Positions 4,631 through 61,290 of a DNA stretch of 64,000 nucleotides are shown here, piece by piece (positions within the stretch are counted from its first letter, which is position 1; the number at the start of each line of letters is the position of its first letter). The stretch comes from Candidatus Poribacteria bacterium. GTDB taxonomy: Bacteria; Poribacteria; WGA-4E; JAJDTR01. The stretch spans positions 519,700-583,699 of the forward strand of contig CBDDPW010000021.1 in assembly GCA_965232535.1 (NCBI GenBank). The letters run 5' to 3'. A program made the position numbers and the translations under genes. The notes below the pieces were generated by a model. That model worked only from the letters and a program-made list of their open reading frames with translations. It made no database searches and was not told where the DNA came from.

Positions 4631-4656
4631 CCGCGATTCGGAGATTTCCCCTACAG
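4631..4656 (+). repeat. REP-like hairpin, class A variant (ccgcgattcggagatttcccCTACag)
   Basis: Shares gcgattcggaga...CCTACAG with the class A copies listed below. Confidence 0.6.
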
Positions 4657-4715
4657 TGGCAAACTGAGACTATAAATGTACCCATAGATTGACACTTTCG
4701 ATTCTTGGAAAAACA

Positions 4716-4745
4716 TTGACATCGGGACAACCGCTTTGATATATT
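4716..4745 (+). promoter_or_regulatory. candidate sigma70-type promoter upstream of the S8 peptidase gene
   Basis: TTGACA at 4716-4721, an 18-nt spacer, then TATATT at 4740-4745, about 35-40 nt upstream of the start codons at 4780/4786. Sequence match only. Confidence 0.35.
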
Positions 4746-4779
4746 CCGAACGCTTTTGCGTATCGAATAAAGAGGAAAA

Positions 4780-6675
4780 TTGGAAATGTGGTTGACTCAA
4801 AATGCTGTGCGCGCCAAAACATTTGTCGCACTTCTACTCTACTCCTCAGCAGCGGTCTGTATTGATTCTCCCGCCTATCCCGCCGACAGTTCGCTTGCGA
4901 GGCACGCCAAAGTCTCCAGGCTACTGCGTAGTGCGGAGATCCATGAAAATCTAAAGGTGTGGGTAGTTTTCAATGACAAGGGACTTTCGACGGAAGACCA
5001 AGTGTACACTGCATTGGAAACGTACGAATCCCAGATGTCCGTGCGTACCAAGCGCCGCCGCGCTCGCAGGACAGACCTCCCATTCCCCGATATTACCGAT
5101 GTCCCGGTTTCATCTACGTACCTTGATGCTGTGCTTAACGTGGGTGGAAGACTACGCGGCAAGAGTCGGTGGCTCAACGCGATTTCGCTTGAGGCAACCT
5201 CCGCCGAGATTGCCGAGATTGCTCGACTGCCCTTTGTGCGTGCTATCGATCCGATCGAGATTTATGAAAGCACATCTCGACACTCGGAATCGCTACGGGG
5301 TTCCTCGTCTCAGGAAGCACCTCCCGGATTTGCACAGTTAAACTACGGGAATTCACGAGTCCAAATAGAACAGATTCAAGCCAACTTTCTGCACGAGTCG
5401 GGGTTCCGCGGGGAGGGAATGGTAATTGGTCTCTTGGACACGGGATTCAGCTTGGAGCACACCGCACTTCAGCGGGTTGATGTTATTGGCCAGTACGACT
5501 TTGTCAACGATGACGAAAATCCGATGGATGAGATTGGTCAGGACGATCCCGGTGAGGATGATCACGGCTCGATTGTTCTCGGCATACTCGCGGCGAACGC
5601 GCCGGGAACTCTCATGGGGGTTGCTCATCGCGCCAGTTATTTACTTGCCAAGACTGAGAAAGCCTTTCAAAACGGGCAGGAGTTTGAGCACCTCATCGAA
5701 GAGGACTGGTGGATAGAGGGACTGGAATGGGCCGAGGAGATGGGCGCGGAAATCATCTGCAGTTCGCTCGGTTATTCAAAATGGTACCGCTTCGAAGACC
5801 TTGACGGGAAGACCTCAAAATTAACCATTGCCGCAAATCTCGCCGTAGAGAAGGGGATGTCCGTAATTGTCGCAGCGGGAAATCTGGGAGACCAGCCCCC
5901 CGGTGAATTGGGCTTAGGCGGACACATCAGTGTGCCTGCCGATGGATTCGACGTGCTCGGTATCGGCTCGGTTGACCGTCATGGTAGGGCCCTCCAATTC
6001 AGTTCGCGGGGGCCAACATTTGATGGACGGATAAAGCCGGATGTCGTCGCCATGGGGCTCGGCGTAACAAGCATCGACCCGCTGGAGCGGAGCCGTTTCG
6101 TCCATAATTACCGCGGCACATCGGCGTCCGCTCCTCTTGGCACGGGCGTGGTTGCGCTACTGATGCAGGCGTTCCCTCTCGCCTCGCCTCGCGATATCGC
6201 GACCGCGGTTCGATCAACCGCCTCCCAATCGCACGCACCGGATAACACAGTTGGGCACGGCATCATCCGCAGCCGCACCGCTTTTGAAGCCTTATTTGCG
6301 CAATTTGGTGAAACCGGAAAGCCCGAACCTAGCAGCCTTCAATTCCCTCCCAACTCGCTGCCGGTTACGGTAGGCAGCTTGAAACACGGCGTCTTATTGC
6401 AGAATTATCCCAACCCGTTCAATGCGGAGACTTGGATTCCATTCAGACTGATGCAGCCGAGCCGGGTAACGATTCGCATATTCGATTTGCGAGGCGGCTT
6501 GATTTCTCGTATCGCGATTGGCAGTCTCCCTATCGGGAATTATTCGGCGAAGCCCGAGGCGGTATACTGGAATGGCCGTAACCTTAACGATGAACGGGTG
6601 GCGAGCGGAGTCTATTTTTATGAGTTGGAGGCTTCGGGAGAAAGACACGTGCGGAGTTTAACAGTGTTGGAATAG
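4780..6675 (+). CDS. secreted S8 (subtilisin-like) serine peptidase with C-terminal beta-sandwich sorting/FlgD-Ig-like domain
   Basis: Catalytic triad contexts GLLDTGF (Asp), DDHGS (His), GTSASAP (Ser). N-terminal signal-like segment. C-terminal LLQNYPNPFNAETWIPF...GVYFYEL resembles T9SS/FlgD-type C-terminal domains. The start may be ATG 4786, with AGAGGA 9 nt upstream. Confidence 0.85.
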   Translation: MEMWLTQNAVRAKTFVALLLYSSAAVCIDSPAYPADSSLARHAKVSRLLRSAEIHENLKVWVVFNDKGLSTEDQVYTALETYESQMSVRTKRRRARRTDLPFPDITDVPVSSTYLDAVLNVGGRLRGKSRWLNAISLEATSAEIAEIARLPFVRAIDPIEIYESTSRHSESLRGSSSQEAPPGFAQLNYGNSRVQIEQIQANFLHESGFRGEGMVIGLLDTGFSLEHTALQRVDVIGQYDFVNDDENPMDEIGQDDPGEDDHGSIVLGILAANAPGTLMGVAHRASYLLAKTEKAFQNGQEFEHLIEEDWWIEGLEWAEEMGAEIICSSLGYSKWYRFEDLDGKTSKLTIAANLAVEKGMSVIVAAGNLGDQPPGELGLGGHISVPADGFDVLGIGSVDRHGRALQFSSRGPTFDGRIKPDVVAMGLGVTSIDPLERSRFVHNYRGTSASAPLGTGVVALLMQAFPLASPRDIATAVRSTASQSHAPDNTVGHGIIRSRTAFEALFAQFGETGKPEPSSLQFPPNSLPVTVGSLKHGVLLQNYPNPFNAETWIPFRLMQPSRVTIRIFDLRGGLISRIAIGSLPIGNYSAKPEAVYWNGRNLNDERVASGVYFYELEASGERHVRSLTVLE

Positions 6676-6746
6676 GGTTGGAAAAAGGAAGGATGGAGGA
6701 TGGAAGAAGTAGTGATCGGTAGGGAGTGGCCAGATCTGAAGGGGAT

Positions 6747-6777
6747 GAAACCGAGCCATCGGGAGAAACTCGGTTTC
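6747..6777. repeat. class E palindromic hairpin (GAAACCGAG-N13-CTCGGTTTC) between convergent genes
   Basis: 9-bp perfect stem. Lies between the S8 peptidase stop (6675) and the M42 peptidase stop (6789). Confidence 0.75.
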
Positions 6778-6788
6778 GCGCCGGATTT

Positions 6789-9936: not shown

Positions 9937-9968
9937 GAAACCGAGTTTCCAAGAAGAAACTCGGTTTC
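9937..9968. repeat. class E palindromic hairpin
   Basis: gaaaccgagtttccaagaagaaactcggtttc, between convergent gene ends 9779 and 10007. Confidence 0.75.
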
Positions 9969-12794: not shown

Positions 12795-13247
12795 AGTGTT
12801 CAAAATGAAATCTCTCCAAAACAATCGAACGTTGGGAACGCAGAACCGAATCGGCACTAGCGGCGCCCCCGAGTGGTTATGGAATAAATGCGGTATAATG
12901 TAACCAAGGCTATGAATGTCAACTTTATTTGAATGATCGATTAGCGTATTGGTGGTTTAATTTCAAAAAACATATGGCACATTTGGGGTGGCTGTGCGGT
13001 TAGAACGGGAGTTCTATCGCACGCTACAAATTCGTTCCGAATCGGTGGTGACTTGCTTAGAATTTACTGATTCGTAGGGGCGAGGTTACCCCGCTTCTAC
13101 GACATAGGGCTGCGCGCCACGCCCGTTGTTTTCGAGTATACCCGCCTTGACGTACACCAAGGTGAAGACTCCAAGAACGGAGATGGGTTCAATTCGTTGA
13201 ATGTTAACATGCCCTATAAACTTAGCAGACAACTCGCCCATGTCGGA

Positions 13248-15798: not shown

Positions 15799-15830
15799 CT
15801 CGGTGCGGTTAGGAAACCGCACCTACCGAG
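15799..15830 (+). repeat. REP-like hairpin class B (GGTGCGGTT-N4-AACCGCACC-TACCG)
   Basis: ctcggtgcggttaggaaaccgcacctaccgag. Confidence 0.8.
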
Positions 15831-16436: not shown

Positions 16437-16583
16437 GAGGTCGCGATCAGGAGGGGGAACTCTATCGCCTTCCTTATTCAGTCAGTTGATCTCCTACAGT
16501 CGGGTTTCGCTGTGCTTAACCCAACTTATGATTTCTCTCGGTAGCTCTCGCGCAGGTTACGGCATACGGAGTATGCCTACTAC
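16437..16583 (+). repeat. mosaic of modules: A-variant, class I (1 unit), D-variant, class F hairpin
   Basis: ggaggtcgcgatcaggaggg; ggaactctatcgccttccttattcagtcagttgatctcctacag; tcgggtttcgctgtgcttaacccaacttatg; ggcatacggagtatgcctactac. Confidence 0.75.
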
Positions 16584-17995: not shown

Positions 17996-18178
17996 TAAAT
18001 GGTGATCTCGGTAAGTGTTTATGTAAGTGAGGAGGTCGCGATTCGGAGATCGCTCCTACAATCAGTCGGGTGACGTAAGGCGGTGTACGGCACACGGGAA
18101 TCTCTATGGGATCTCTATCGCCTTCACTATTCGTTCAGTTGATCACTCGCTATCCACTCGCTTGATCCTACTACTTTG
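17996..18178 (+). repeat. composite repeat: leader taaatggt..gtaagtga, class A hairpin, linker, class I (2 units), CTACTAC
   Basis: Read directly. Same module order as 18445-18668 and 34995-35130. Confidence 0.8.
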
Positions 18179-18444
18179 CTTGATCGCCGCTTTTCTCATT
18201 GAACCGATACAGCGAAAAGAGATGCCAACGGAGCGGGTTCTTCGGAATCGTAATGCTAACAAAATGCTAACAGAAAAAAGTCCCGCAGCCATGACGGTTT
18301 GTCATGATGCGCTACAATATACCACATACACGTTAAGTTATCAATCTAAAAGTAACGAGTTGCGGGAGGGAAGAAAAGTTGGCTGACAGTGGTTATTCCA
18401 TTTCTTCAAAATGACTGTGCACAATTGGTAGATGGCGTGAGTTG

Positions 18445-18668
18445 GAATCGCGATTCGGAGATCGCTCCTACAATCTGTCCGGTGATGTAAGGCGGTGTAC
18501 GGCACACGGGGATCTCTATCGCACTCGCTATCCACTCGCTTGATCCTACTACTTTGAAACCATGCCATATACTCTTGGCGAATGAACCACTAAATGGTTT
18601 TCTCGGCAAGTGTTTATGTAAGTGAAGATGTCGCGATTCGGAGATCGCTCCTACAATCTGTCGGGTGG
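18445..18668 (+). repeat. composite repeat: class A, linker, class I (1 unit), ctactactttgaaaccatgccatat.. segment, leader, second class A
   Basis: Class A copies at 18447-18473 and 18630-18657. The leader at 18590-18629 is about 90% identical to 17996-18034. Confidence 0.8.
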
Positions 18669-19994: not shown

Positions 19995-20389
19995 CACGGA
20001 TAAAAAACACTTACCCGGCGTAGTTTTGCAGCTTGAAGATTTTTATTGGCGATTATGATGTAAGAAAGAGAAGAGATTGACGAGCAGCCAAATTAGGCCT
20101 GACCCTCTTCAGCGAAAAGAGGTTGACATCTAGAAATGCGCATTGTATGGTAATAATTCAGTTCGGCTTTAGGAACGACAATGGTTATTGCTCATAATTA
20201 TCACCAACGTAAATTCAAACCTGTGCGGAAAAGCGCTTAAAACGATTCAGTTTTTGTACGAAGGACTTGACATCTCCTTTTCGTAATAGGAAAAATTAAT
20301 CGGGTTGGCGCAAGAATTAGCGGCGCTGAATGGTTAGTCTAAGTTGAAAACCAACCGCAACGCCAACACCATAAACATACGGAGCATTC

Positions 20390-22486
20390 ATGACACAACC
20401 AGACAACATCCACACGATACTTAAAGACACTGATTATCATCTTTTTCTGTTCAAGGAAAACGAAATTGACAGTCTGCGTGATAGAATTTTCTTTAAAACT
20501 GTTAGAGAAAAAGAACGCCCGTTTGTAAACTGTATCGTGCGGAATAAGGACATTCAGTTAAAACCTGAGGAAGTCGTGCGTCAGCTTTATGCGGCAAGAC
20601 TCATTAATCAATACGGCTATTCCAAAACACGGTTGGCTTTTGAATATTCTGTTAACTTTGGCAGGCAAAAGAAAAGCGCCGATATTGTCATTCTCGACAA
20701 AGATCGGCCGGATACCGCTTATATTATCGTTGAGTTGAAAAAGCCCAAACTCAAGGACGGTAAAAACCAACTGCGCTCCTATTGCAACGCAACCGGAGCA
20801 CCGATTGGGGTCTGGACAAATGGAGAGTTTATTTCTCATTACCATCGCAAAGACCCAAATTACTTCGAAGAAATTAGCGATATTCCTAACGTTAACCAAG
20901 CCTTGAAGGATATTCTCAATGAACGTTTCACTTTGAAGGGCCTCATCCTCAAGGACAAGATTGCCACCGAGAGAAAATCGCTGAAAGACATTGTTTTGGA
21001 AATGGAGGATGAGGTGTTGGCAAATGCCGGAGTAGATGTCTTTGAGGAGGTTTTCAAACTCGTATTCACTAAACTCTATGATGAATATGAAAGCCGCAGA
21101 GATAAGGAATTCCTCAACCGATCTGTCCGACTACGCACTAAAACCGCTATACATGAGAATCAGCCCAATTATCTTTATGGCGAGGATTATGAAACCCTCA
21201 AGGCAGTGGTTAAGGAAATTCCAGATGGCGACTTCCGCCCGATGGAATTTAGAAACACCGGACAGACTGACACAGAACTTAAGAACAAGATCCAGCGTCT
21301 TTTTGACGCTGCAAAAACACAGTGGCCTGGGGTTTTTTCAGAAGGCTCCGCTTTTGAACTCACTGACAGCCATTTGGCTATTTGCGTAGCCAGCTTGCAA
21401 GATGTCAAGCTGTTCAACTCCAATCTGTTGGTGGTGGATGAAGCTTTTGAATATTTGGTGAACAAATCTGCCAAAGGCGAAAAAGGGCAGTATTTTACGC
21501 CACGCCATGTAATTGATATGTGCGTGGAGATGCTGAATCCCAAACCCGGCGAATATATGATTGATACCGCGTCAGGCAGTTGCGGTTTCCCGGTGCATAC
21601 CATCTTCAAAATCACTGGCCACCTTTTCTCCAATCAAGAAATACCAGAAGCAGATAAGCAGAACGTGCGCAAAGTCTTCGGTATTGACTTCGACGAAAAA
21701 ACAGTTAGGGTTTCCAGAACGTTGAATCTGATTGCCGGGGATGGAGAAAGCAATGTTTTGCACTTGAATACGTTGGATTTTGAACGCTGGAGCGACAGAA
21801 CAGAGGGTGACAGAAAATGGATAAGAACCTATGCCGAGGGTTTTGAACGGTTGGAAAAACTGAGAACCAACATAGGGGAAAACCAGAACTTTAACTTTGA
21901 CATTCTGATGGCAAATCCTCCCTTTGCGGGAGACATTAAGGAGAGCCGTTTGCTGCATAAATACCAACTCGGATTTAAGGCAAACAAGGAACCGCAAAGC
22001 AAAGTTGGACGCGACATTCTGTTTATTGAGCGCAATCTGGATTTTCTCAAACCAGGTGGGCGCATGGCGATTGTGCTTCCGCAGGGAAGGTTTAATAACA
22101 CATCAGATAAACATATCCGCGATTTTGTTGCCGAGCGTGCACGCATCCTGGCGGTCATCGGTCTACACATTAACACTTTCAAGCCCCACACTGGTACTAA
22201 GACTAGCGTACTGTTTGTGCAAAAATGGGACGATGGAGACCTTTGTCCCAAAGTTGACGATTATCCTATTTTCTTTGCCGTGAGCGAAAAAGGTGGGAAG
22301 GACAACTCTGGTGATTACGTCTATCTCAAGAATGAGGATTCGAAGGACAAGCTCGACAGAAATGGGCATCTAATCGTCGACCACGATTTACATAACCACA
22401 ACGGCGAATTGCCGGATGGAATCGCTGAAGCGTTTATTGAATGGGCGAAGGCCGAGAGACTGTCATTTTGGCGTCATGATGAATGA
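20390..22486 (+). CDS. fusion of an HSDR_N-type PD-(D/E)xK nuclease domain and a gamma-class N6-adenine DNA methyltransferase (HsdM/BcgI-A-like)
   Basis: N-terminus: KPEEVVRQ..SADIVIL..AYIIVELKKPK..QLRSY..WTNG (HSDR_N pattern with a D...ExK core). C-terminus: methylase motif I IDTASGSCGF and motif IV NPPFAG. GGAG RBS before the ATG. Confidence 0.85.
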   Translation: MTQPDNIHTILKDTDYHLFLFKENEIDSLRDRIFFKTVREKERPFVNCIVRNKDIQLKPEEVVRQLYAARLINQYGYSKTRLAFEYSVNFGRQKKSADIVILDKDRPDTAYIIVELKKPKLKDGKNQLRSYCNATGAPIGVWTNGEFISHYHRKDPNYFEEISDIPNVNQALKDILNERFTLKGLILKDKIATERKSLKDIVLEMEDEVLANAGVDVFEEVFKLVFTKLYDEYESRRDKEFLNRSVRLRTKTAIHENQPNYLYGEDYETLKAVVKEIPDGDFRPMEFRNTGQTDTELKNKIQRLFDAAKTQWPGVFSEGSAFELTDSHLAICVASLQDVKLFNSNLLVVDEAFEYLVNKSAKGEKGQYFTPRHVIDMCVEMLNPKPGEYMIDTASGSCGFPVHTIFKITGHLFSNQEIPEADKQNVRKVFGIDFDEKTVRVSRTLNLIAGDGESNVLHLNTLDFERWSDRTEGDRKWIRTYAEGFERLEKLRTNIGENQNFNFDILMANPPFAGDIKESRLLHKYQLGFKANKEPQSKVGRDILFIERNLDFLKPGGRMAIVLPQGRFNNTSDKHIRDFVAERARILAVIGLHINTFKPHTGTKTSVLFVQKWDDGDLCPKVDDYPIFFAVSEKGGKDNSGDYVYLKNEDSKDKLDRNGHLIVDHDLHNHNGELPDGIAEAFIEWAKAERLSFWRHDE

Positions 22487-22516
22487 AACAAAGGGGGATG
22501 AGGTTAGTATTCGATT

Positions 22517-23272
22517 ATGAGTTATATAGGAAACGAACAACATTGGAAACAGCTGATAGAAGTAGATTGGCTTGGACAATATGTCAAAACTTGGATCGCA
22601 TTCAATGCTTGGTATAGAAATAGCTTTAAGCTGAAAAACGATTGGAGAATTATTGAAGCAATCAAGAACGACGAAGGCGACATTTGCACGAAGATTGAGA
22701 CTTTTTTGGTAGGCAACAGCTCGGACCAGGAAACGTTCCAGTCAGCCGTAGCAGACCTCCATCGGGCGCTCTCAGATACAATCATAAAGTCCAAAGATAG
22801 AAAGATTTCCTTTGAGGAAATTGAAGATTATAGGCACGCCAAATCCGTTGATGAGATAAAAAACAGGGTGTCATACAGAATTGAAATAGACATTGTCGAG
22901 AAAAAGCGCCTTATTACGATAACAAATTCCAAAGGAACAACGATTTATTCTGCAACTATAGACTGGAAGCAAGAAAGGGACAACTATAATCCGCATCAAG
23001 TGGACACATTATCACACGCGCAAAATGGGGCTCTCCGCGGGTTTCTTAAGGAATCATCACCAATTCACAACTTACTTCGCTATGGGAGCAATCCTCTTGA
23101 GATTGGCAGTTTCAAATTCACAGACAACCCGAACCTAATCGCCCGGGGAATAATTGAAGTCCTTTACCAATTGAGAAATGCTCTTTTTCACGGGGAAATA
23201 ACTCCTGATCTGAAAGCACAGAGGACATATCAGCCGGCGTATCTCATTCTAAAGTCAATAATCCCAATGTGA
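22517..23272 (+). CDS. HEPN-domain protein (putative RNase) embedded between the methylase and S genes
   Basis: 251-aa ORF 30 nt after the upstream stop. C-terminal VLYQLRNALFHGEITPD carries the Rx4H HEPN signature in an RN..H context. Confidence 0.6.
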   Translation: MSYIGNEQHWKQLIEVDWLGQYVKTWIAFNAWYRNSFKLKNDWRIIEAIKNDEGDICTKIETFLVGNSSDQETFQSAVADLHRALSDTIIKSKDRKISFEEIEDYRHAKSVDEIKNRVSYRIEIDIVEKKRLITITNSKGTTIYSATIDWKQERDNYNPHQVDTLSHAQNGALRGFLKESSPIHNLLRYGSNPLEIGSFKFTDNPNLIARGIIEVLYQLRNALFHGEITPDLKAQRTYQPAYLILKSIIPM

Positions 23273-23374
23273 AGCAACATGGAAGGCGCCAAGCAGTGTC
23301 GAGAATTGAACTGTGGCTTTAATATCTGGAACCAATAGATGTCAAACACGGTAGCACCATGACGAGGGCTAACG

Positions 23375-24778
23375 ATGCAGTATTCAATTATAAATTTCAG
23401 TCAAATTAGCACGCAATTGCTCAGACTTGAAGCTGAATTTTACAATTCGAATTCGCTGTTGAATTCCTACTGTTTTTCAGGCGTAGAAGTGATTGATTTC
23501 GTTCAGTACGGAACCTCTGAAGAATTGAATGAAGAAAATAAAGGGTATCCAACTTTACGATTAAATGAGTTTTCGTCATTTTTCATAAAACATCCTCAAA
23601 AATATTGCGACAAAATTGACGAGGAAACATACCAGTCTCTCGCTTTGAAAAAAGGTGATGTTTTAATCTGTAGGACAAACGGTAATCCTCGGCTCGTAGG
23701 AAAATCGGCGATTGTGCCAGAAGATTGTAATTATGCTTTTGCGTCTTACTTATTCCGAGTTAGACCAAAAGAGGAGATATTGTTGCCAACAACCCTCGTT
23801 ACATATTTAAATTCAACAGTGGGTAGGGCCGAAATTGAGAAGCATCTCATGGTAAGCAATCAAGCAAATTTCAGTCCGGCTAAATTTCGAGAAATGCTGA
23901 TTCCACGGTTTGGAGAAAAAATTCAGTCACGTGTTGACAAATCCATTTGGGAGTCTTACTGCAAACACAGCAATTCAACGCAGATTTACACGCAAGCTGA
24001 GACTCTCTTTCTCTCCGACTTGGGCCTTGCTAACTGGAAACCTAAACATCGGCTAGCTTTTGTTGAGGGGTTCGCCAAGGCGCGACAGGTAGAACGTCTT
24101 GATGCTGATTATTTTCAACCGAAATACGATGAAATGGTCAGAGCGATAAAAAAATATCCAGGTGGCTGGGATACCCTTCAAAACTTGACAACAATAAAGA
24201 AATGCGTCGAGGTAGGAAGTGACCAATACCTTCCGGAAGGGATCCCTTTTGTCCGCGTTAGCAATTTGAGTCCGTTCGAAATTACTGAAGAAAAGTACAT
24301 CTCCGAGGCGATGTATGCAAAGTTGATAAAACACCAACCTAGACAGGGTGAAATACTCCTGAGCAAAGACGCAACTCCAGGTATTGCTTATTATCTGCGT
24401 GAACAACCACCGAAGATGATTCCTTCAGGCGGGATACTGCGTTTGGAGAGCAAAACGGACGACATTGAGAACGAGTATTTGATGTTAGTTCTAAATTCAA
24501 GGCCGACTACGGAGCAAGTAAACCGCGATGTAGGCGGGTCAGTGATACTCCATTGGAGACCAGATCAGGTTAAAGCAACAATTATTCCAATCCTTCCCAA
24601 GGATAAGCAAGTACAAATCCGAAATAAGATTACTGCATCCTTTGAGTTAAGAAAGCAGTCTAGGCAACTACTGGAATGCGCCAAACGGGCAGTTGAGATT
24701 GCAATTGAGCAAAACGAGCAAGTTGCCGTTGAATGGCTGGAAGATGCAACTAATAGACTCCGTTGTAAACGTCCCTAG
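23375..24778 (+). CDS. hsdS: restriction-modification specificity subunit (HsdS-like, two target-recognition domains)
   Basis: 467-aa ORF. Duplicated TRD architecture with conserved spacer helices (e.g. SRVDKSIWESY.. and QIRNKITASFELRKQSRQLLECAKRAVEIAIEQ). Confidence 0.85.
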   Translation: MQYSIINFSQISTQLLRLEAEFYNSNSLLNSYCFSGVEVIDFVQYGTSEELNEENKGYPTLRLNEFSSFFIKHPQKYCDKIDEETYQSLALKKGDVLICRTNGNPRLVGKSAIVPEDCNYAFASYLFRVRPKEEILLPTTLVTYLNSTVGRAEIEKHLMVSNQANFSPAKFREMLIPRFGEKIQSRVDKSIWESYCKHSNSTQIYTQAETLFLSDLGLANWKPKHRLAFVEGFAKARQVERLDADYFQPKYDEMVRAIKKYPGGWDTLQNLTTIKKCVEVGSDQYLPEGIPFVRVSNLSPFEITEEKYISEAMYAKLIKHQPRQGEILLSKDATPGIAYYLREQPPKMIPSGGILRLESKTDDIENEYLMLVLNSRPTTEQVNRDVGGSVILHWRPDQVKATIIPILPKDKQVQIRNKITASFELRKQSRQLLECAKRAVEIAIEQNEQVAVEWLEDATNRLRCKRP

Positions 24779-26537: not shown

Positions 26538-26570
26538 AGAAACCAAGTTTTGAAGAAAAAACTCGGTTTC
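26538..26570. repeat. class E palindromic hairpin
   Basis: gaaaccaagttttgaagaaaaaactcggtttc, between convergent gene ends 26274 and 26617. Confidence 0.75.
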
Positions 26571-27735: not shown

Positions 27736-28101
27736 GTGCACCCTACAAAATGACTATCGAGGAAAGCGTTGGGTTTCGCTGCGCTCTACCCAACCTACGC
27801 ACTTCTCTTAGTCCTAATCGGACGGGGGCCGGTGCGGTTGGAAACCGCACCTACCGGATGGGGTGCGACGTATAACCTCACCGACACTAAGCGAACTCCC
27901 TTAAATTGATCCCTGTGGAGGGATTCTATCGCGGTCGCTGTTCGCTCCCTTGATCCTTCACTATTCGTTCAGTTGATTCTGTTCAGTCGCTTGATTCCAC
28001 CCTACTACAAACCTGCGGTCGCGATTCGGAGATCGCTCCTACAGAAGACCTGACAGGTTTTACAGGGCAGAAACCGAGTTTTGAGGAAAAAACTCGGTTT
28101 C
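27736..28101 (+). repeat. BIME-like cluster of six different modules: C (partial) 27736, D 27768-27799, B 27829-27857, I 27920-28008, A 28017-28044, E 28070-28101
   Basis: All read directly. All CTAC tails are on the + strand. Confidence 0.85.
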
Positions 28102-32678: not shown

Positions 32679-32707
32679 AAGGCTGGTGCGCTGTGCGCAC
32701 CCTACAA
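32679..32707 (+). repeat. REP-like hairpin class C (AAGGCTGGTGCGC-N3-GCGCACC-CTACAA)
   Basis: aaggctggtgcgctgtgcgcaccctacaa, 21 nt upstream of the Lhr start codon. Confidence 0.8.
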
Positions 32708-32976: not shown

Positions 32977-33266
32977 GTTGGGTTTCACTGCGTTCAACCC
33001 AACCTACGGGCTCGTTCGATCTCCTTCGATTGTTGATGGCGCCGCCAAGAGATGGTGGGCATGGGATCTCTATGGGATCTCTATCGCCTTCACTATTCGT
33101 TCAGTTGATCACTCGCTATCCACTCGTTTGATTCCACCCTACAGTTATATACGAAACGATGATGCGGGTTTAGGCGGTAACAGGAAAGCGGGAAAGGAAC
33201 GCAGAGGTGAGTTCCCTACGGTGCCCATCACAGTCATGGGACGGCACAGGGGCCGTCCCCTACAAA
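32977..33266 (+). repeat. mosaic: class D 32977-33009, class I (2 units) 33063-33144, two unique GTAG-type hairpins 33196-33221 and 33238-33266
   Basis: gttgggtttcactgcgttcaacccaacctacgg; ggaacgcagaggtgagttccctacgg; gggacggcacaggggccgtcccctacaaa. Confidence 0.8.
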
Positions 33267-33395
33267 TAGCCCTAGGGGATTCTGTCGGTTTCTGGTTGAT
33301 TTTCGATACCGGCTATAGTAGAATGCCGCACAGACTAACCGGGTTCCTTTCTCTCTCGCGTTCTTCACAACCTACCGACCAAGGAGGCACCTACC

Positions 33396-34788: not shown

Positions 34789-35517
34789 AATGGTTTGCTT
34801 TCTAAGAACATAAGGTAGGCGTTGGTAGTTGACATTGTCTGAACTGTGATTCATGGGATTACCTTGATTGCTGGTGTCTAGTTATCCAGGGGTGAGCCGA
34901 GTAAACTGTACCTTGATGCCACCGGGATTTAGGGAAGAAACCAAGTTTTCAAGAAAAAACTTGGTTTCGATATGTGTTAAATACAAGTAGGAAGGTCGCG
35001 ACCTGGAGGTCGCTCCTACCGGCCGTTGGGTGGTGAAAGGCGGTTTACGGCACACGGAGTGTGCCTACTACTTTGAAATGATGCCATATTCTCTTGGCGA
35101 ATGAACCATTATTGGTTTACTTTTTAAGAACGTAAGGTGGGCGTTGGGTGTCGGTAGTTAATATTGTCTGAACTGTGATTCATGGGATTCTTGTGATTAC
35201 CTTGATTGCATGTGGCAAGTTCCCGGTGATGAGTCGGCTAGATCGTTATCTTGAGCGCACTAGGATTCAGGGAAGAAACCAAGTTTTCAAGAAAAAACTG
35301 GGGTTCGATATGTGTTAAATACAAGTAGGAAGGTCGCGACCGGGAGGTCGGTCCTACCGGCCGTTGGGTGGTGAAAGGCGGTTTACGGCACACGGAGTGT
35401 GCCTACTACTTTGAAATGATGCCATATAGACTTAGCGAGAAGACCATTATTGGTTTACTTTTTAAGAACGTATGGCAAGTGTTGGGTGTCGGTGCGGTTA
35501 GAAACCGCACCTACCGA
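34789..35517 (+). repeat. tandem composite repeat, about 2.1 copies (periods 322 and 338 bp), ending in a class B hairpin (35489-35517)
   Basis: The anchor tggttt(g/a)ct recurs at 34791, 35113 and 35451. Each copy carries module K, a class E hairpin (34937, 35275), class A' (34995, 35333) and class F (35049, 35387). Confidence 0.85.
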
Positions 35518-37795: not shown

Positions 37796-38154
37796 GTAGG
37801 AGCGAGCCTTGCCCAAGACAGGAGATCGCGACCGGGAGGTCGCTCCTACCGGGCGTTGGGTGTCGGTAGTTAATATTGTCTGAACTGTGATTCATGGGAT
37901 TCTTGTGATTACCTTGATTGCATGTGGCAAGTTGCCGGTGATGAGTCGGCTAGATCGTTATCTTGAGGTCACTAGGATTCAGGGAAGAAACCAAGTTTTC
38001 AAGAAAAAACTGGGTTTCGATATGTGTTAAATACAAGTAGGAAGGTCGCGACCGGGAGAAGATCTCTATCGTCATCCTTATTCTTTCGTTTGATTGCACT
38101 CTATAAGAAACTAGCTTGGTGTTGGGTTTCACTCTGTTCAACCCAACCTACAGG
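37796..38154 (+). repeat. mosaic: GTAGGAGCGA/TCGCTCCTAC inverted pair with class A' (37825-37850), a 208-bp copy of the tandem unit (37851-38058), class I (38059-38105), class D (38121-38154)
   Basis: 37851-38058 differs from 35139-35347 at about 4 positions by eye. Confidence 0.85.
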
Positions 38155-47898: not shown

Positions 47899-48022
47899 AA
47901 TTTCGCATTCTTCTAGGGAAGTTTGAGTAACAGGAGCCCATTCAATAAGCAGAAGTGAAAGCAATTTCTGGCTATTTGAACACTGTTGAATGTCGTCCCG
48001 ACGGCACTTTCAAAGGCTGGTG

Positions 48023-48052
48023 CGCACTGCGCACCCTACAAAACTGAACCTT
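48023..48052 (+). repeat. REP-like hairpin class C
   Basis: aaggctggtgcgcactgcgcaccctacaaa. Confidence 0.8.
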
Positions 48053-48081
48053 CGACATTTGCTTCTGATCGAGTTCCCATT

Positions 48082-49308
48082 ATGAGACTCCTCTTCCTAT
48101 CAATCACAGTTCCTTATCCAGCAACAGACGGCGGTCGGCTACGGGTGCTGAATTTGCTCAAACAGACCGCTCAGCGGAACCGGGTTACTTTCTTGGCGTT
48201 GGAAACGCAACCGACTGACAAGGAGGGAATTGAGTATCTTCGGAGTCTCGGGATTGAAGCACACCTCGTTTCACACACCTCCCGGTTACCGCCAATCACC
48301 TTTCGATCCGTGAGCCAAGCCGTATTTAAGCGGAAACCGCTGACGGTAGCTCGGTATGATGTCCCCACATTTCGGAGAGCATTCCATTCGTTGCTAGACA
48401 CGGGAAGTTATGATTTGATCCATTATGAGATGTTCCATACCGGCCAGTATTACCTAGAAACGAATGCAAGGAGTTTGCTATCCCTCCAGAACGTTGATTC
48501 GCACATCTGGCGCCGCCTTCGCGAACAGACACCAAACCCTCTTCGACGCGGCCTGTTCCGGACCCAAGAATGCGCGTTTCGACGATTCGAGCGTACTATG
48601 TGCAATCGTTTCAACCTTGTCGCTTGTGCGTCAGGAGTTGATCGAGATCTCATGGATGAGATCTGTCCGGGGCTAAACTCGGACGTGATTCCCAACGGCG
48701 TCGATACCACACTGTACCAGCCAAATCATGAAGTTGAAGAAGAGGCGACGCTAATTTATACGGGCAGCATGGATTGGTTTCCAAACGAAGATGCGGCTAT
48801 CTACTTCATCGACGACATCCTTCCCACGATTCAAGAAAAGCGCCCGAACCTGAAATTTTATGTTGTCGGGCAGTTTCCCAGCGAGCGCCTAAAGCGCTAC
48901 GGCAACCGCCCCGGAGTCATTATTACCGGTCGGGTAGATGATGTTAAACCGTACATCGCACGCGCCACGGTTTATGTTGTGCCGTTGAGGATTGGCGGCG
49001 GCACGCGTCTAAAAATCCTAGAGGCATTGGCTATGGGAAAGGCTGTCGTGTCGACAAGTGTCGGCGCCGAGGGATTGAATTTAAGCGAGGGGGATGAAAT
49101 CACGATTGCCGACGAGTCGGCGACGTTTGCCGATGGCGTTCTTCAGCTCATGGAAAACGGATGCATGCGACGGGGACTAGGCGACAACGGAAGGCGACGT
49201 GTTGAGACAGAATATGATTGGCGACGGATCGGAGAAAAATTGCAGAGGCTGTATGAAGCGGTGGTGGCTGAGGATTCCGGGATAACGGGTACGATCCATA
49301 ATCCGTAA
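48082..49308 (+). CDS. GT4-family (GT-B fold) glycosyltransferase
   Basis: MRLLFLSITVPYPATDGG N-terminus. C-terminal GGTRLKILEALAMGKAVVSTSVGAEGL motif. The ORF-track start 47986 would read through a REP-like hairpin (48023-48052), so I prefer the internal ATG. Confidence 0.8.
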   Translation: MRLLFLSITVPYPATDGGRLRVLNLLKQTAQRNRVTFLALETQPTDKEGIEYLRSLGIEAHLVSHTSRLPPITFRSVSQAVFKRKPLTVARYDVPTFRRAFHSLLDTGSYDLIHYEMFHTGQYYLETNARSLLSLQNVDSHIWRRLREQTPNPLRRGLFRTQECAFRRFERTMCNRFNLVACASGVDRDLMDEICPGLNSDVIPNGVDTTLYQPNHEVEEEATLIYTGSMDWFPNEDAAIYFIDDILPTIQEKRPNLKFYVVGQFPSERLKRYGNRPGVIITGRVDDVKPYIARATVYVVPLRIGGGTRLKILEALAMGKAVVSTSVGAEGLNLSEGDEITIADESATFADGVLQLMENGCMRRGLGDNGRRRVETEYDWRRIGEKLQRLYEAVVAEDSGITGTIHNP

Positions 49309-50009: not shown

Positions 50010-50092
50010 GTTGGGTTTCACTGTGTTCAACCCAACCTACGGACTGGGTAATACCATGAATCGGAGTCGCGATTCGGAGATCGCTCCTACGG
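50010..50092 (+). repeat. class D (50010-50042) plus class A (50066-50092) between convergent genes
   Basis: gttgggtttcactgtgttcaacccaacctacgg ... gtcgcgattcggagatcgctcctacgg. Confidence 0.85.
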
Positions 50093-50914: not shown

Positions 50915-50979
50915 GCTGTTTGTCGATGTCGGTCACTGCCGGCAAACGTCACGGCTGACGGCGTATTCCTTCAGCCGGG

Positions 50980-52167
50980 TCACAACACATCCTTCGCTGC
51001 CAAACGGATGGCGTTTGCGGTTTTGTCAATCTGCTCCTCTGTCATGTCGGGCTGAATGCCGACCCGAATCGCACGACTTAGATAGTCCAACGTCCGAGGG
51101 CACATGCGATCGGAGTAATGAATTTTGCCTTCGTATGCGGGATGCGAGTAAGGCAACCCGTTCGGATGGTAGGTTTTCTTCTCAAGGATATAGTGCCAAT
51201 TCGAATAGACGTGCCTGTCTCCATTCCCGTGAGTGTACATGGGACCGCTTGGAGTGCCATATTTACCCATTGCTTCTCCAAACTTGACTGCGAGATCCGG
51301 GGTCGGAAGGAAAAACGCGACCGATAAATTGCAATCGCCGTTTTCATCGTGAAGTTTCCGCATCTCAATACCGTCCACATCGGCGATTGCTCGGCGTAGT
51401 TTGGCGTTCCGAATTTTCGTGTTTTCCAGATAATCATCAAGGCGCGTCAGCTGCACAGATGCAACGGCGCCGCGAATCTCATCCATTCTGAAGTTCATGC
51501 CCGGGAAGGCGGCTTGGGATTGCTTCGAGATTCCCCACAGATTTCCCGCATCGTGCGCCATGCGGGCTCTATCGTACAAATCGTCATCATCGGTAATCAC
51601 GACACCCCCTTCGCCGGTAATAAGAATTTTGCTCTGCTGCATGCTGAAGCATCCGATGTCACCGTATGTGCCGACTCTTTTGCCGTTGACCGAGGCTCCC
51701 ATTGCTTGAGCACAATCTTCAATTACGACGAGATTATGCTTTTCGGCTAACGCTTTTATCTTGGGCATATCCGATGGCATGCCCAACATATGCACGGGAA
51801 TGATTGCCTTCGTCCGTGGCGTAATCTTGGTTTCGATGTCCTCCGGATCGATTGAAAGGGATTCATCAATCTCTGCAATAATCGGAACGGCGTTCGCAAT
51901 CACGACGGCAGACGGCGTCGCAATCCAGGTGTATCCCGAAATGATGACCTCGTCGCCGAGACCCACACCGGCGGCGTATAACGCAACGATTAACGAGGCG
52001 GTGCCCCCATTCGTCGCAAGCGCATGCTTGACGCCAAACTTTTCTGCCATGCCTTTTTCAAAGGCGGCGACTGTGGATTCCTCGGGGCCATACCGACAAA
52101 GTTCGCCTGATCTCAAGACTTTTAGCACCGCTTGTTCCTCTTCTTTACCTATACGCGCCATCGTCAA
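50980..52167 (-). CDS. DegT/DnrJ/EryC1/StrS family PLP-dependent aminotransferase
   Basis: 395-aa ORF. GDEVIISGYTW, IPVHMLG and CFSMQQSKILITGEGG (PLP lysine context). Confidence 0.85.
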   Translation of the reverse strand: MTMARIGKEEEQAVLKVLRSGELCRYGPEESTVAAFEKGMAEKFGVKHALATNGGTASLIVALYAAGVGLGDEVIISGYTWIATPSAVVIANAVPIIAEIDESLSIDPEDIETKITPRTKAIIPVHMLGMPSDMPKIKALAEKHNLVVIEDCAQAMGASVNGKRVGTYGDIGCFSMQQSKILITGEGGVVITDDDDLYDRARMAHDAGNLWGISKQSQAAFPGMNFRMDEIRGAVASVQLTRLDDYLENTKIRNAKLRRAIADVDGIEMRKLHDENGDCNLSVAFFLPTPDLAVKFGEAMGKYGTPSGPMYTHGNGDRHVYSNWHYILEKKTYHPNGLPYSHPAYEGKIHYSDRMCPRTLDYLSRAIRVGIQPDMTEEQIDKTANAIRLAAKDVL

Positions 52168-55007: not shown

Positions 55008-55033
55008 GGAACGCAGATCGGCGTTCCTTACAC
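55008..55033 (+). repeat. REP-like hairpin with TTAC tail (GGAACGC-agatcg-GCGTTCC-TTACAC), 7 nt left of the IS5 insertion
   Basis: 7-bp perfect stem. The tail differs from the CTAC consensus by one base. Confidence 0.5.
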
Positions 55034-55040
55034 CCCTTTA

Positions 55041-55991
55041 GAGCCTGTTTGAAAAGTCATTTGATTCGATTTCGCATCAAGTAGATGGAAGCGATGTATA
55101 CCATAGTTTCAGCAGTCTTAGGAAAGCGTTCATAATCCAAAGTCAATCGACGAAACCAACCAAGCCAAGAGAATGTGCGTTCAACAATCCATCGTAACGG
55201 AACAACTTCAAACCCCTGCTGCCCTAGCGTAGATGCAATCTCTAGTTGACACTGATGAGCCAGATATAACCAGTCTTCTAATTCGCCGCGATAGGCGGCA
55301 TCGGCACACACCAACTGAATTGTTATGTACCAGCTAAACACTTCTGTTAGTAACTCGATAGCTATCTGATTGTCACTAACATTGGCATCAGTGACTTTGA
55401 CCATCAATGGAATACCCGTCGTATCCGTTACCAGATGGCGTTTGCGTCCTTTGACCTTCTTGTGACCATCAAATCCTCTAGTCTCCGCCAGTTCCGTCGT
55501 CTTAACGGATTGGCTGTCAATGATAGCTGCTGTCGGTGATGGTTGTTTGCCGCCATCACAACGTGTTTGTTCGCGAAGTGCCTGATGAATCAAGAGCCAT
55601 GTGTTGTCGACTTGCCACTTTCTGAAATGGTAATAGACGGTTTGCCACGGTGGCATATTATGGGGTAGCATTCGCCACTGGCAACCGGACTTGACGACAT
55701 AAAAGATAGCATTGATGATTAAGCACATCTCCCATTTTGGAGGTCTGCCTAATGGTTGAGGGGCTGGCAGAAACGAGGACAGTTTCTCCCACTGTGCATC
55801 AGTCAAATCACTGGGATAACGCTTGCGGTTCATGTTTACTCCTTTCATTGGTTCAGATTTAACTGCTCCAATGAGTAAACGTAAACATCAACCGTTCAGA
55901 CAACTTTTTTCTTTTTCTAATAGGTTCTTGAGGGCATTTACCCCAAAATAGCCCTTTCTCTAAGGCGATTCCGGACTTTTCAAACAGGCTC
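55041..55991 (-). mobile_element. intact IS5-family insertion sequence (951 bp) with 18-bp perfect terminal inverted repeats and a TTA target-site duplication
   Basis: IRL GAGCCTGTTTGAAAAGTC at 55041-55058 is the reverse complement of 55974-55991. TTA sits at 55038-55040 and 55992-55994. A single transposase ORF lies inside. Confidence 0.85.
55057..55848 (-). CDS. IS5-family DDE transposase
   Basis: 263-aa ORF. N-terminus RYPSDLTDAQWEKL..GRPPKW..IINAIFYVVKSGCQWRMLP is typical of the IS5/IS427-IS1031 group. The stop codon lies inside the left IR. Confidence 0.9.
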   Translation of the reverse strand: MKGVNMNRKRYPSDLTDAQWEKLSSFLPAPQPLGRPPKWEMCLIINAIFYVVKSGCQWRMLPHNMPPWQTVYYHFRKWQVDNTWLLIHQALREQTRCDGGKQPSPTAAIIDSQSVKTTELAETRGFDGHKKVKGRKRHLVTDTTGIPLMVKVTDANVSDNQIAIELLTEVFSWYITIQLVCADAAYRGELEDWLYLAHQCQLEIASTLGQQGFEVVPLRWIVERTFSWLGWFRRLTLDYERFPKTAETMVYIASIYLMRNRIK

Positions 55992-56010
55992 TTAGCGAGG
56001 AAACCAAATG

Positions 56011-56183
56011 GTTGGGTTTCGCGGCGTTCAACCCAACCTACAGGATAAAACTATACTCAGCATCGGTTAATTTTGCACAATTATGCACCGCAGGTTTGTC
56101 GCAGCGATCTCCGAATCGCGATGGTCGGGAATCGAAAGGGATTTCTATCGCACTCGCTATCCACTCGCTTGATTCCTCCTACC
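56011..56183 (+). repeat. mosaic: class D 56011-56044, inverted class A 56101-56122, class I 56138-56183
   Basis: gttgggtttcgcggcgttcaacccaacctacagg; gcagcgatctccgaatcgcgat (reverse complement of class A); gggatttctatcgcactcgctatccactcgcttgattcctcctacc. Confidence 0.8.
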
Positions 56184-58140: not shown

Positions 58141-58345
58141 GGGGACGCAGATCTGCGTCCGCTACGATTAGCGTAGGGAACGTTGATCGTTGTTCCCTAC
58201 AAAGCACAGAAGAAGGGGAACTGGTGACTTGATGATTGCAGATGGTAAGTTGGTATTACGAATACAATGAATGAGTAAGCGAAAAGCGGTGGGCATCGGA
58301 TCTCTATCGTACTCGCTAATCGCTCGTTTGATCCCACCCTACAAT
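58141..58345 (+). repeat. mosaic: two unique GTAG-type hairpins (58141-58166, 58173-58200), module L, class I (58298-58345)
   Basis: ggggacgcagatctgcgtccgctacg; GTAGGGAAC-gttgatcgtt-GTTCCCTAC; ggatctctatcgtactcgctaatcgctcgtttgatcccaccctacaat. Confidence 0.75.
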
Positions 58346-58517
58346 ACACTTACAATTTGATGCGATTGCGCTCAAATCTTCCAATTTTCTGTTGACAATG
58401 GTAGATTAAATAGGGTATTCTTTGGGCTGTCAAGGTTTTAACCTTGACATGTTTACCCTTGGCTGAACATGGTCGTTAATCACAAGGGCTTGCGAAATAC
58501 TATCGGAGATTGCGCCG

Positions 58518-58907
58518 TTGTCGATTGATAAACTCAAGTACGTGCTGCTGTCGGACTTCTACAGCAATCTGTTAACGGAAAAGCAGCGAGAATTCCTCAG
58601 CCTTTATTATGAGGAGGATTTGTCGTTGGGAGAGATTTCCGAGAAGTTCGGAATCTCACGGCAGGCGGTGTATGATTCGATTCGGTCGTCTGAGATGTGC
58701 CTTGAACGCTTAGAGAACGAGCTTGGGCTGTTGGCTAGTTTTCAACATCAGCGGGGTGTAGTCACAGATGTGTTGGATCATCTGCAATCACTGGAAACCG
58801 ACGATGTTGGCACAAAGAAACAGGAAACAATTCGGTACATTAAACAACGTCTTCACAGTTTGATTGACCTTCCTCAGTCACCATACGGCGATGAAGCGCG
58901 GAGCTAA
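58518..58907 (+). CDS. ylxM: YlxM/UPF0122 putative HTH protein preceding ffh
   Basis: LLSDFYSNLLTEKQREFLSLYYEEDLSLGEISEKFGISRQAVYDSI is the YlxM signature. The position directly upstream of ffh is conserved. Confidence 0.8.
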   Translation: MSIDKLKYVLLSDFYSNLLTEKQREFLSLYYEEDLSLGEISEKFGISRQAVYDSIRSSEMCLERLENELGLLASFQHQRGVVTDVLDHLQSLETDDVGTKKQETIRYIKQRLHSLIDLPQSPYGDEARS

Positions 58908-58915
58908 AGAAAATT

Positions 58916-60298: not shown

Positions 60299-60477
60299 GA
60301 TAATAGCGGTTAAGGCTTGGAGATTCAAGCCGAGCGGGAAGGAGTAGTATCCACGCTCCGCCGCGCAGCTATTTTCACAAGAGAACTGGAACTCGGAGTA
60401 TACCCAATACCATTTAAATTTAGTTGAACGTTTGAAACGTTTCTCGGTCTACAACCACAATAAGGAGGAAGTAATTT

Positions 60478-60861
60478 TTGGCAGTTAGAATAAGACTTCA
60501 ACGCCACGGCAGAAAGAAGCGTCCGTTTTATCGACTAGTGGCGGCTGATGCCCGTGCCCAACGAGATGGACGGTTCCTAGAACGCTTAGGTCATTACGAT
60601 CCATTGACTGACCCGGCTGAAGTTGTCATTGATGAAGACAGGGTTTTGAAGTGGCTGAAACGGGGTGCGCAACCGTCGGACACAGCAAAGAACCTTTTGT
60701 CGCAAGCCGGCATTTGGGAGAGGTTCACCGCTGAACGATTAGGAAAACCCGTTCCGACGCGGGAGGAGGAATCTCTTTCGACGGAGGAGGATAGCTCTTC
60801 GTCGACAGACGAAGCGCCCCCTGCCGAAAACGAGAGCGAATCCGCAGACGCTACTTCATAA
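60478..60861 (+). CDS. rpsP: 30S ribosomal protein S16 with about 40-aa acidic/Ser-rich C-terminal extension
   Basis: TTG start after AAGGAGG. (M)AVRIRLQRHGRKKRPFYRLVAADARAQRDGRFLERLGHYDP. Confidence 0.95.
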   Translation: MAVRIRLQRHGRKKRPFYRLVAADARAQRDGRFLERLGHYDPLTDPAEVVIDEDRVLKWLKRGAQPSDTAKNLLSQAGIWERFTAERLGKPVPTREEESLSTEEDSSSSTDEAPPAENESESADATS

Positions 60862-60879
60862 GCGCCAGTTGAATCAACG

Positions 60880-61290
60880 AATTGACACTTGTAATCTAAA
60901 ATCCAAGGTGAACCCGATCGCCGTGGGACGAGAGCCCGCTTCACAAAATCGAAGTTTGTGTTAAGTGTGCGATGCGGGCTACACGTTTAGAACGTGCTTG
61001 ATGATGGTGGGAAGTGCCCACCCTACAGAACCGAATCTACGGAAGATGCATCGGATACACCGGTTGAACCATTTAATTGACACACGCAATTCGATGTCCA
61101 AGTGAATCCAGTCGCGGCGGAACGAGAACCTGCTTGAATAAATCGAAGTTTGTGTTATGCGTGTGATGCGGGCAACGCGGTAAGATCGCGCTCGAAGACG
61201 GTGGGCAGTGCCCACCCTACAAAACCGAATCTGCGGAAGATGCTCTGGATACACCGGTTGCTTCATTCAATCGACGGTTGTAATCCAGGG
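60880..61290 (+). repeat. tandem direct repeat, about 2.1 copies of a 194-195-bp unit, in the rpsP-KH intergenic region
   Basis: Unit starts aattgacac at 60880 and 61075, and aatcgacgg at 61269. Each full unit contains a class G hairpin (61006-61028, 61200-61222). Confidence 0.85.

Follow-up and report, generated by a model that had tools for sequence, protein, structure and literature searches.

Co-oriented GTAG-headed REP/RAYT-type repeats in a 64-kb stretch of a Candidatus Poribacteria chromosome

Di Nocera et al. (2013) united the repetitive extragenic palindromes (REPs) tagged with GTAG into one superfamily, whose 24 stem families are spread over several phyla, the PVC group and Cyanobacteria among them (PMC3733652). 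Several such families can occupy one genome, RAYT (REP-associated tyrosine transposase) genes are flanked by GTAG repeats, and head-to-head or tail-to-tail inverted dimers dominate, head-to-tail arrangements being absent or rare in most genomes; some families, however, consist mostly of singletons, such that inverted doublets are typical and not obligatory (PMC3733652). Published models of REP dissemination by RAYTs invoke single-stranded DNA (ssDNA) at replication forks (PMC3333891, PMC8266576), and transposition of the IS200/IS605 elements is coupled to the lagging-strand template, which leads to a chromosome-wide orientation bias (PMC3971601; PMC3333891). Here we describe short intergenic hairpins in a 64-kb stretch of DNA (contig CBDDPW010000021.1; hereafter the window, meaning the whole stretch) from Candidatus Poribacteria, an uncultivated phylum of sponge symbionts. 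The repeats are a member of the GTAG REP/RAYT group in a phylum new to it, with an unusual organization into singletons and head-to-tail pairs that are co-oriented.

After curation, the window holds 35 short hairpins with a C(C)TAC tail on the + strand (Table 1), each of which reads on the - strand as GTAG plus a hairpin, with the shared unit 5'-GTA-GG(stem)...(stem)CC. TAC is present in all 35 copies, preceded by C at position -1 in 33 and at position -2 in 32, and these two C's usually close the stem. The elements are GC-rich, 20-32 nucleotides (nt) long and without cargo, their stems of 6-9 bp start with GG/CC, and their folding energies are -6 to -11 kcal/mol. At least eight unrelated stem families share the GTAG head within the 64 kb. 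An initial annotation of this stretch had put the number of hairpins with a C(C)TAC tail at about 38; the pattern and the positions given, to within a few bases, are borne out, and the count is corrected to 35, with further copies at 4630, 12991 and 18284.

The association of hairpin and tail, also proposed there, is far above expectation. A scan for perfect hairpins (stem of at least 6, loop of 3-16, CTAC at the 3' foot) found 25 on the + strand and three in the opposite sense, whereas the same scan of 60 dinucleotide-preserving shuffles gave 1.8±1.3 and 2.1±1.4 for the two senses (maxima 5 and 6), an enrichment of about 14-fold. Directly after perfect hairpins, CTAC was the most frequent 4-mer (11 of 243), with no such excess on the mirrored side. 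When imperfect stems were tolerated in an energy-based scan, with the class A pattern added, the intergenic DNA held 24 + strand and three - strand hits; the 8:8 found inside open reading frames (ORFs) was taken as background. In folding comparisons, seven of the eight GTAG classes were more stable than shuffled sequences (z -2.1 to -7.2).

These properties bear on whether the elements are REPs at all. The ends of IS200/IS605-type or palindrome-associated elements, integron attC sites and REPs all use single-stranded hairpins, attC arrays are co-oriented, and attC core sites are similar to the class D arms, GTTGGGT/ACCCAAC. We nevertheless give almost no credence to a non-REP identity, or to a chance or compositional artefact. 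The last was ruled out by the comparison with dinucleotide shuffles. The attC reading was rejected on three grounds: a Pfam scan of the window ORFs of 100 aa or more revealed no integrase, the order of the class D arms is wrong (R' before R'', reversed with respect to R''-L''...L'-R'), and large housekeeping genes on both strands lie between the copies. IS200/IS605 ends were discarded because the same ORFs include no tnpA or tnpB and no left and right hairpins bracket a cargo; the 20-32-nt size also speaks against such elements. Intrinsic terminators were excluded too, with a downstream T-run (T>=4) in none of the 35 copies (A>=4 lies upstream of two) and a sense independent of the flanking genes, as were known RNA families, since an Rfam scan of the window returned no match.

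Putative enzymes for these repeats are encoded in related genomes (L numbers denote stretches of relatives; L109 and L120 come from chromosome OZ244829.1 and L079 from OZ252032.1). A tblastn search with E. coli TnpA-REP, its sequence confirmed against PDB 4ER8, led to a 157-aa ORF in L109 (1e-8) that scores 125.9 bits on the NCBIfam equivalog REP_Tyr_transpos, 'REP-associated tyrosine transposase' (cutoff 80), matches Pfam Y1_Tnp and retains the HUH and catalytic-Tyr motifs. Its homologues form 331 clusters at E<=1e-10, with MPDHxH, WQ, GIR and YCYxNPVR as conserved motifs; where a source is named, the label is Poribacteria transposase or RayT. Of the residues with which the E. coli enzyme contacts GTAG, W94, Q95 and R104 are kept in the Poribacteria RAYT and E100 is replaced by D, a change also found in published RAYT subclasses 2.5 and 2.7 (PMC6006769).

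RAYT genes are present in L109, L120, L123, L124 and L128, and their flanks connect them with the window. On each side of the L109 gene lie three doublets that include class A, each made of GTAGGAGCGATCTCCGAATCGCGAC (window class A in exact reverse complement), a spacer of about 25 nt and GGGAATCGGAATTCCCTCCTAC. Its orthologue in L128 (88% identity) has class A GTAGGAGCGATCTCCGAATCGCGAC on both sides in the same flanks, and the genome from which L128 comes contains an insertion sequence (IS) copy 92% identical to the one in the window. The paralogues are accompanied by other GTAGGAG-headed hairpins: six tandem A/A'-type heads, GTAGGAGCGATCTCCAGGTCGCGA, upstream and one downstream in L120; a hairpin of its own, GTAGGAGGGCTT, three times upstream and once downstream in L124, where the sequence GTAGGAGGGCTTTGTAAGCCCGA is carried; and GTAGGAGGAACCTCC... 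in L123. Among the 120 of the 331 homologue clusters that were listed, most are each seen on one contig, and OZ244829.1 has at least two paralogues with different flanking heads. Judged from sequence, then, relatives carry predicted RAYT genes flanked by the repeat seen in the window, as the REP/RAYT reading of the initial annotation had anticipated. The orthologues at L109 3845-4318 and L128 8012-8509 both adjoin an aldo/keto-reductase gene, in different genomes; this shared neighbour would fit a single, vertically inherited RAYT locus.

The unusual feature of the window is the near-total co-orientation of every family. The 35 copies have one sense, with two or three inverted pieces, and at least eight stem families plus a further hairpin family, class H (described below), keep that sense over about 20 intergenic regions and 57 kb. 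Among 20-mers repeated at a distance of at least 200 nt, 460 cases are direct and one is inverted (644 versus 25 for 16-mers). Pairs of different intergenic regions with common 14-mers are likewise mostly direct (35, against 5 inverted), compared with 82 direct and 44 inverted at other loci (p=9e-4). According to the initial annotation, only the copy at 56101 and the half-site at 37796 are inverted; the near-single sense holds, with the qualification that the inverted pieces, few in number, are exceptional: the copy has a mutated head, the half-site acts as an outer stem, and the copies at 34995, 35333 and 58173 are two-headed. The genes around the 35 copies are both on the + strand in 13 cases, both on the - strand in 10, divergent in 8 and convergent in 4. 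Because tandem, convergent and divergent contexts all hold copies in the same sense, orientation is independent of transcription, which had also been claimed. The inverted doublets of REPINs and BIMEs are missing from the window, which has singletons and head-to-tail pairs instead, and are present beside the RAYT genes of L109 and L128; the inverted copy at 56101 looks like the remnant of a doublet like those in L109.

Relatives of the window, from sponge-type metagenome assemblies, include a strain 99.3% identical, found through trmD and with a contig that begins inside the window, and two syntenic stretches, L125 (94-97% identity) and L126 (85-90%). Once aligned, both syntenic stretches have their repeats in the sense of the window, in proportions of 6:0 and 7:1, and the lone opposite call in L126 is the mirror of a two-headed copy. 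Elsewhere the two senses are found 1:11 in L120 and 0:6 in L129/L130, and L128 is mostly in one sense. L120, from the 6.15-Mb chromosome OZ244829.1, shares classes A', B and C with the window. Local co-orientation is general, the same pattern being seen in syntenic relatives and in independent 20-kb loci.

The class A 22-mer GCGATTCGGAGATCGCTCCTAC matched more than 115 stretches in a collection of species-representative genomes, nearly all labelled Candidatus Poribacteria and a few from metagenome-assembled genomes without a label, and several complete 5-7 Mb chromosomes are among the matches listed; in the collections searched the repeats are restricted to Poribacteria. Individual copies are gained and lost between close relatives. 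The HhH-GPD|PhyH spacer holds classes D and A in the window, a class G derivative and class H in L125, and is empty (37 nt) in L126, and in the PhyH|DegT spacer a class F copy is intact in L126 and decayed in L125, the window having an unrelated hairpin there. This last hairpin, GGCTGA..TCAGCC (50915-50980), has no CTAC tail, and hairpin potential has been kept there while the sequence was replaced. In a viral-contig collection the only exact match to the 22-mer was in L133 (IMGVR_UViG_2681813469_000001, 52 kb), which could be a prophage of Poribacteria or a piece of chromosome that was misclassified; with this one match only, the scan does not suggest spread of the repeats by phages.

The sense might be set by a polar function that the host maintains, for example as a polarity or segregation signal, a replication or repair landmark, an RNA stabilizer or a terminator. 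Such a function could explain why the intergenic repeats are more conserved between species than the surrounding genes (85-100% identity against 65-69%), and the strand polarity is akin to that of the polar motifs KOPS and Chi. Effects of REPs on mRNA stability and termination have been reported in other organisms (PMC3733652). We still consider this quite improbable: the sense ignores transcription, as the 10 copies between - strand genes and the 13 between + strand genes illustrate, and T-runs are lacking. A position-specific function is further disfavoured because copies come and go at the same spacer in close relatives. Moreover, the stems differ wholly between classes, and all that they have in common, GTAG plus a hairpin, corresponds to what RAYTs recognize.

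We think it likely that the repeats are GTAG-tagged Poribacteria REPs mobilized in trans, with a co-orientation that would stem from unequal exposure of the two DNA strands at the replication fork. The window copies would be non-autonomous hairpins whose - strand, 5'-GTAG-hairpin, is recognized and moved by RAYTs (TnpA-REP), Y1 HUH ssDNA transposases that may be encoded elsewhere in the genome, with one paralogue for each stem family or small group of families. All families would come to share one sense if RAYTs act on a single strand and this strand is unequally exposed at the fork. Two routes could produce such an outcome. In one, loss through excision or cleavage would preferentially affect copies with the active strand on the lagging-strand template; in the other, new copies would be joined to the 3'-OH ends of the nascent lagging strand, via a RAYT-5'-phosphotyrosine intermediate.

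The link to replication direction was assessed with GC skew adjusted for the strand of the genes, and hence for transcription (corrected skew). In the window the corrected skew is b=+0.038, making the + strand G-rich, and it is +0.068 in the next 10 kb of the sister strain (L116). The ribosomal and SRP genes of the window also point this way, being on the + strand. Oriented like the window, L125 and L126 have the same repeat sense and values of +0.064 and +0.050, and in L109 and L128, independent of each other and with repeats in the opposite sense, the values are negative (-0.054 and -0.045). Over 118 loci, net orientation and corrected skew are correlated (rho 0.26, p=0.004). A link between co-orientation and replication direction is, on these data, only suggestive. 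RAYTs read the 5'-GTAG-hairpin strand (PMC3479197, PMC8266576), which here is the - strand and thus the C-rich one, and we infer that this C-rich GTAG strand is the leading-strand template. In IS608-type elements the active strand is on the lagging-strand template (PMC3333891, PMC3971601; IS200/IS605 polarity is also given by Ton-Hoang 2010, as cited in PMC3333891). It is a tentative and rather doubtful proposition that every REP family, and class H with its different Y1 enzyme, is polarized with respect to replication such that the strand read by RAYTs stays away from the lagging-strand template, opposite to the arrangement in IS200/IS605.

Several observations weigh against the explanation we favour. 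The window has neither a RAYT/Y1 transposase gene nor a remnant of one; the search for such a gene gave an enzyme flanked by the class A repeat in relatives, and the class A hairpin taken alone is weak (-3.7 kcal/mol, z -0.6), no better than shuffled sequence. In lower-GC Poribacteria, class A repeats occur in inverted doublets and in mixed orientations. The signs of orientation and corrected skew agree at only 57 of 95 loci, and L120 and L129/L130 are strongly co-oriented yet have a corrected skew near 0. No clean pattern of two oppositely oriented arcs emerges from the loci along the complete chromosomes OZ244563.1 and OZ244829.1, where 8-kb skew is noisy. Finally, the polarity of the repeats is opposite to that documented for IS200/IS605, and the fork model therefore needs an extra assumption or a different step. 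Of the earlier claim of a single orientation tied to replication, then, the orientation stands, in syntenic relatives and at other loci, and the tie is no more than suggestive, given the low correlation with corrected skew and a polarity the reverse of IS608. Other markers of replication direction were of little help: KOPS-like and Chi-like motifs, and skewed oligomers identified de novo, occurred too rarely to be useful, the most skewed 7-mers being the repeats themselves, and of two look-ups with an IS transposase meant to sample one chromosome at many points, one gave a single place and the other five places on four contigs.

Some of these results would also be expected if a REP/RAYT system is at work and co-orientation arises from short-range copying in cis that preserves orientation, by a rolling-circle-like process or slippage, yielding regional blocks, each with a sense of its own, that have nothing to do with replication. 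Co-orientation is seen at a scale of 8-20 kb in many loci with a weak relation to skew, the loci on OZ244563.1 and OZ244829.1 do not form two clean arcs, and arrays of one unit, head to tail, adjoin RAYT genes. However, local copying of one element cannot align at least eight unrelated families and class H across 57 kb, and the sense is kept in the syntenic L126 even though the individual copies differ. We therefore hold this version to be unlikely, and continue to prefer trans-mobilized REPs with unequal strand exposure.

Class H is a second family of hairpins, GAAACCAAGTTTT-SAAG-AAAAAACTYGGTTTC, with six copies in the window, all on the + strand and with no fixed GTAG head (Table 1). In L079 (5561-7707), a 188-aa Y1_Tnp-like ORF lies between cas2 and cas1 with a class H hairpin on both sides; it scores 70.6 bits on the RAYT model, under the cutoff of 80. 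The ORF and class H may represent a second Y1/hairpin system that in this case interrupts a CRISPR adaptation operon.

Some REPs are combined into larger arrangements. Two composite units in one spacer (34930-35120 and 35270-35460) consist of class H, A' and F followed by a conserved tail, tactttgaaatgatgccatat..cttggcgaatgaacc, and a related composite, A then F, is found at 18.0-18.65 kb. These units do not constitute a regular array, since Tandem Repeats Finder called nothing between 17.5 and 38.3 kb. A module of 35-110 nt, which starts with GG(R)ATCTCTATCG and ends with ..GAT, is located between the REP 5' arm and loop and the CCTAC tail, where it stands in for most of the 3' arm; its hosts are REPs of class F, A or G. 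This arrangement suggests a second element that either recombines with REP loops or is inserted in them.

The host stretch is ordinary chromosomal DNA of 50% GC with genes on both strands, among them those for an Lhr helicase, a type I restriction-modification system, WD40 and lectin-domain proteins and a TonB-dependent receptor; ffh, rpsP, trmD and rplS are all on the + strand. The restriction-modification system, with an N6_Mtase/HSDR_N fusion at 20390-22486 and a specificity subunit at 23375-24778, lies with a low-GC block (20001-24000; 42% versus 50% overall), and this block was probably acquired horizontally. An IS5/IS1182-family IS (55041-55991) encodes a DDE transposase on the - strand (55057-55848) and has terminal inverted repeats GAGCCTGTTTGAAAAGTC and a 3-bp target duplication, TTA. 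The IS sits 9 nt past the tail of REP 55008-55031, and L125, though syntenic here, lacks it; ISs are known to target REPs (Tobes & Pareja 2006, as cited in PMC3971601). Some mechanically called ORFs of at least 100 aa run over REP-rich spacers or extend real genes upstream across a REP; those at 18027-18386, 32978-33433 and 47986-48084 have no family matches and are probably not genes.

Table 1. REP copies, class H hairpins and module sites. Positions refer to the window unless a locus is named; for REPs, '-' in the strand column means that the GTAG head reads on the - strand.
Feature	Position	Strand	Remarks
Degenerate class A REP	4630..4654	-	+ strand reads GCCGCGATTCGGAGATTTCCCCTAC; beyond the initial annotation
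Unique-stem REP (..GCGGTTAGAACGGGAGTTCTATCGCACGCTAC)	12991..13027	-	-9.8 kcal/mol; beyond the initial annotation
Class B REP, GGTGCGGTTaggaAACCGCACC-TAC	15802..15826	-	
Class F variant REP, GGCATACggaGTATGCC-TAC	16561..16580	-	Compensatory pair change versus GGCACAC..GTGTGCC
Class A REP, GTCGCGATTCGGAGATCGCTCCTAC	18035..18059	-	
REP-like unique hairpin, GCTAC tail	18284..18315	-	-8.9 kcal/mol; weakest call; beyond the initial annotation
Class A REP	18447..18471	-	
Class A REP	18630..18654	-	
Class D REP, GTTGGGT..ACCCAAC-CTAC	27768..27798	-	
Class B REP	27831..27854	-	
Class A REP	28018..28042	-	
Class C REP, GGTGCGCtgtGCGCACC-CTAC	32685..32705	-	
Class D REP	32977..33007	-	
Unique-stem REP, GGAACGCAGAGGTGAGTTCC-CTAC	33196..33219	-	
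Unique-stem REP, GGGACGGC..GCCGTCCC-CTAC	33238..33263	-	z -3.7
Class A' REP	34995..35019	-	GTAGGAAG also on 5' side (head at both ends)
Class F REP	35049..35068	-	Head-to-tail partner of A' copy 30 nt upstream
Class A' variant REP (GGTCGGTCCTAC)	35333..35357	-	GTAGGAAG on 5' side (head at both ends)
Class F REP	35387..35406	-	
Class B REP	35491..35514	-	
Class A' REP	37825..37849	-	
Class D REP	38121..38151	-	
Class C REP	42107..42127	-	Decayed tail CTTAC
Class A' REP	43034..43058	-	
Class A REP	45932..45956	-	
REP, stem GGACAACC..GGTTGTCC-CTAC	47387..47412	-	Same stem in L126 and L129
Class C REP	48019..48039	-	Upstream of likely true start of glycosyltransferase gene
Class D REP	50010..50040	-	No copy in orthologous L126 spacer
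Class A REP	50066..50090	-	No copy in orthologous L125 and L126 spacers
REP, GGAACGCAGATCGGCGTTCC-TTAC	55008..55031	-	Decayed tail; intact CTAC at same site in L125
Class D REP	56010..56041	-	
REP, GGACGCAgatcTGCGTCC-GCTAC	58143..58165	-	
REP, GTAGGGAAC..GTTCCCTAC	58173..58200	-	Head at both ends
Class G REP, GGTGGGaagtgCCCACC-CTAC	61006..61026	-	
Class G REP	61200..61220	-	
Inverted class A copy (sole)	56101..56125	+	Mutated head, GTCGCAGCG in place of GTAGGAGCG
Inverted half-site, GTAGGAGCGA	37796..37805	+	Can pair with TCGCTCCTAC at 37840-37849 as outer stem
Class H hairpin	9937..9968	+	3 mismatches
Class H hairpin	26539..26570	+	GTA directly before
Class H hairpin	28070..28101	+	
Class H hairpin	34937..34968	+	
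Class H hairpin	35275..35306	+	
Class H hairpin	37987..38018	+	
GG(R)ATCTCTATCG module	18092-18172		
GG(R)ATCTCTATCG module	18503-18541		
GG(R)ATCTCTATCG module	L109 4440-4490		
GG(R)ATCTCTATCG module	L109 4795-4850		
GG(R)ATCTCTATCG module	L125 spacers		

The idea of sequence-unrelated hairpins under one head, put forward in the initial annotation, is true here and already known, having been published in 2013 (PMC3733652). The present finding adds Poribacteria to the hosts of REP/RAYT systems, and our literature search found no published report of REPs in this phylum. Nor is an orientation bias of REPs relative to replication reported in the RAYT/REP literature searched, including PMC3333891 and PMC8266576. 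The Poribacteria lineage may supply an orientation signature of the way in which RAYTs spread REPs in vivo. The replication-strand idea is plausible but unproven, and the polarity it entails is unexpected. Were it true, it would give the first readout within a genome of how RAYTs disseminate REPs, and REPs would become markers of replichore polarity; if polarity is only regional, the repeats are an ordinary new member of a well-known family.

Among the described systems, integron attC sites share with the window imperfect palindromes that are used as folded single strands and a common orientation of the copies in an array. They differ in that the window has no cassettes and its copies are scattered among chromosomal genes. 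The likeness to the IS200/IS605 elements (IS608, ISDra2) extends to a Y1 HUH enzyme, the use of one strand of hairpin ssDNA and the reading of a tetranucleotide 5' of the foot. The window elements, on the other hand, have no distinct left and right ends and enclose no tnpA or tnpB, and, whereas the active strand of IS608 is the leading-strand sequence, the GTAG strand here is the C-rich one. The closest match is the GTAG REP superfamily, represented by the E. coli REP/BIME and Pseudomonas REPIN-RAYT systems, with which the repeats share a GC-rich hairpin of 20-40 nt with an unpaired GTAG at one foot, many stem families with one head, several families per genome, numerous intergenic copies and, in relatives, an HUH/Y1 enzyme of about 157 aa flanked by its own REPs. 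They depart from it in the host phylum, in having at least eight families within 64 kb, in the eight of 35 copies that occupy divergent, promoter-side spacers and, above all, in arrangement: classical REPs form mostly inverted dimers, while those of the window are singletons and head-to-tail pairs in one sense.

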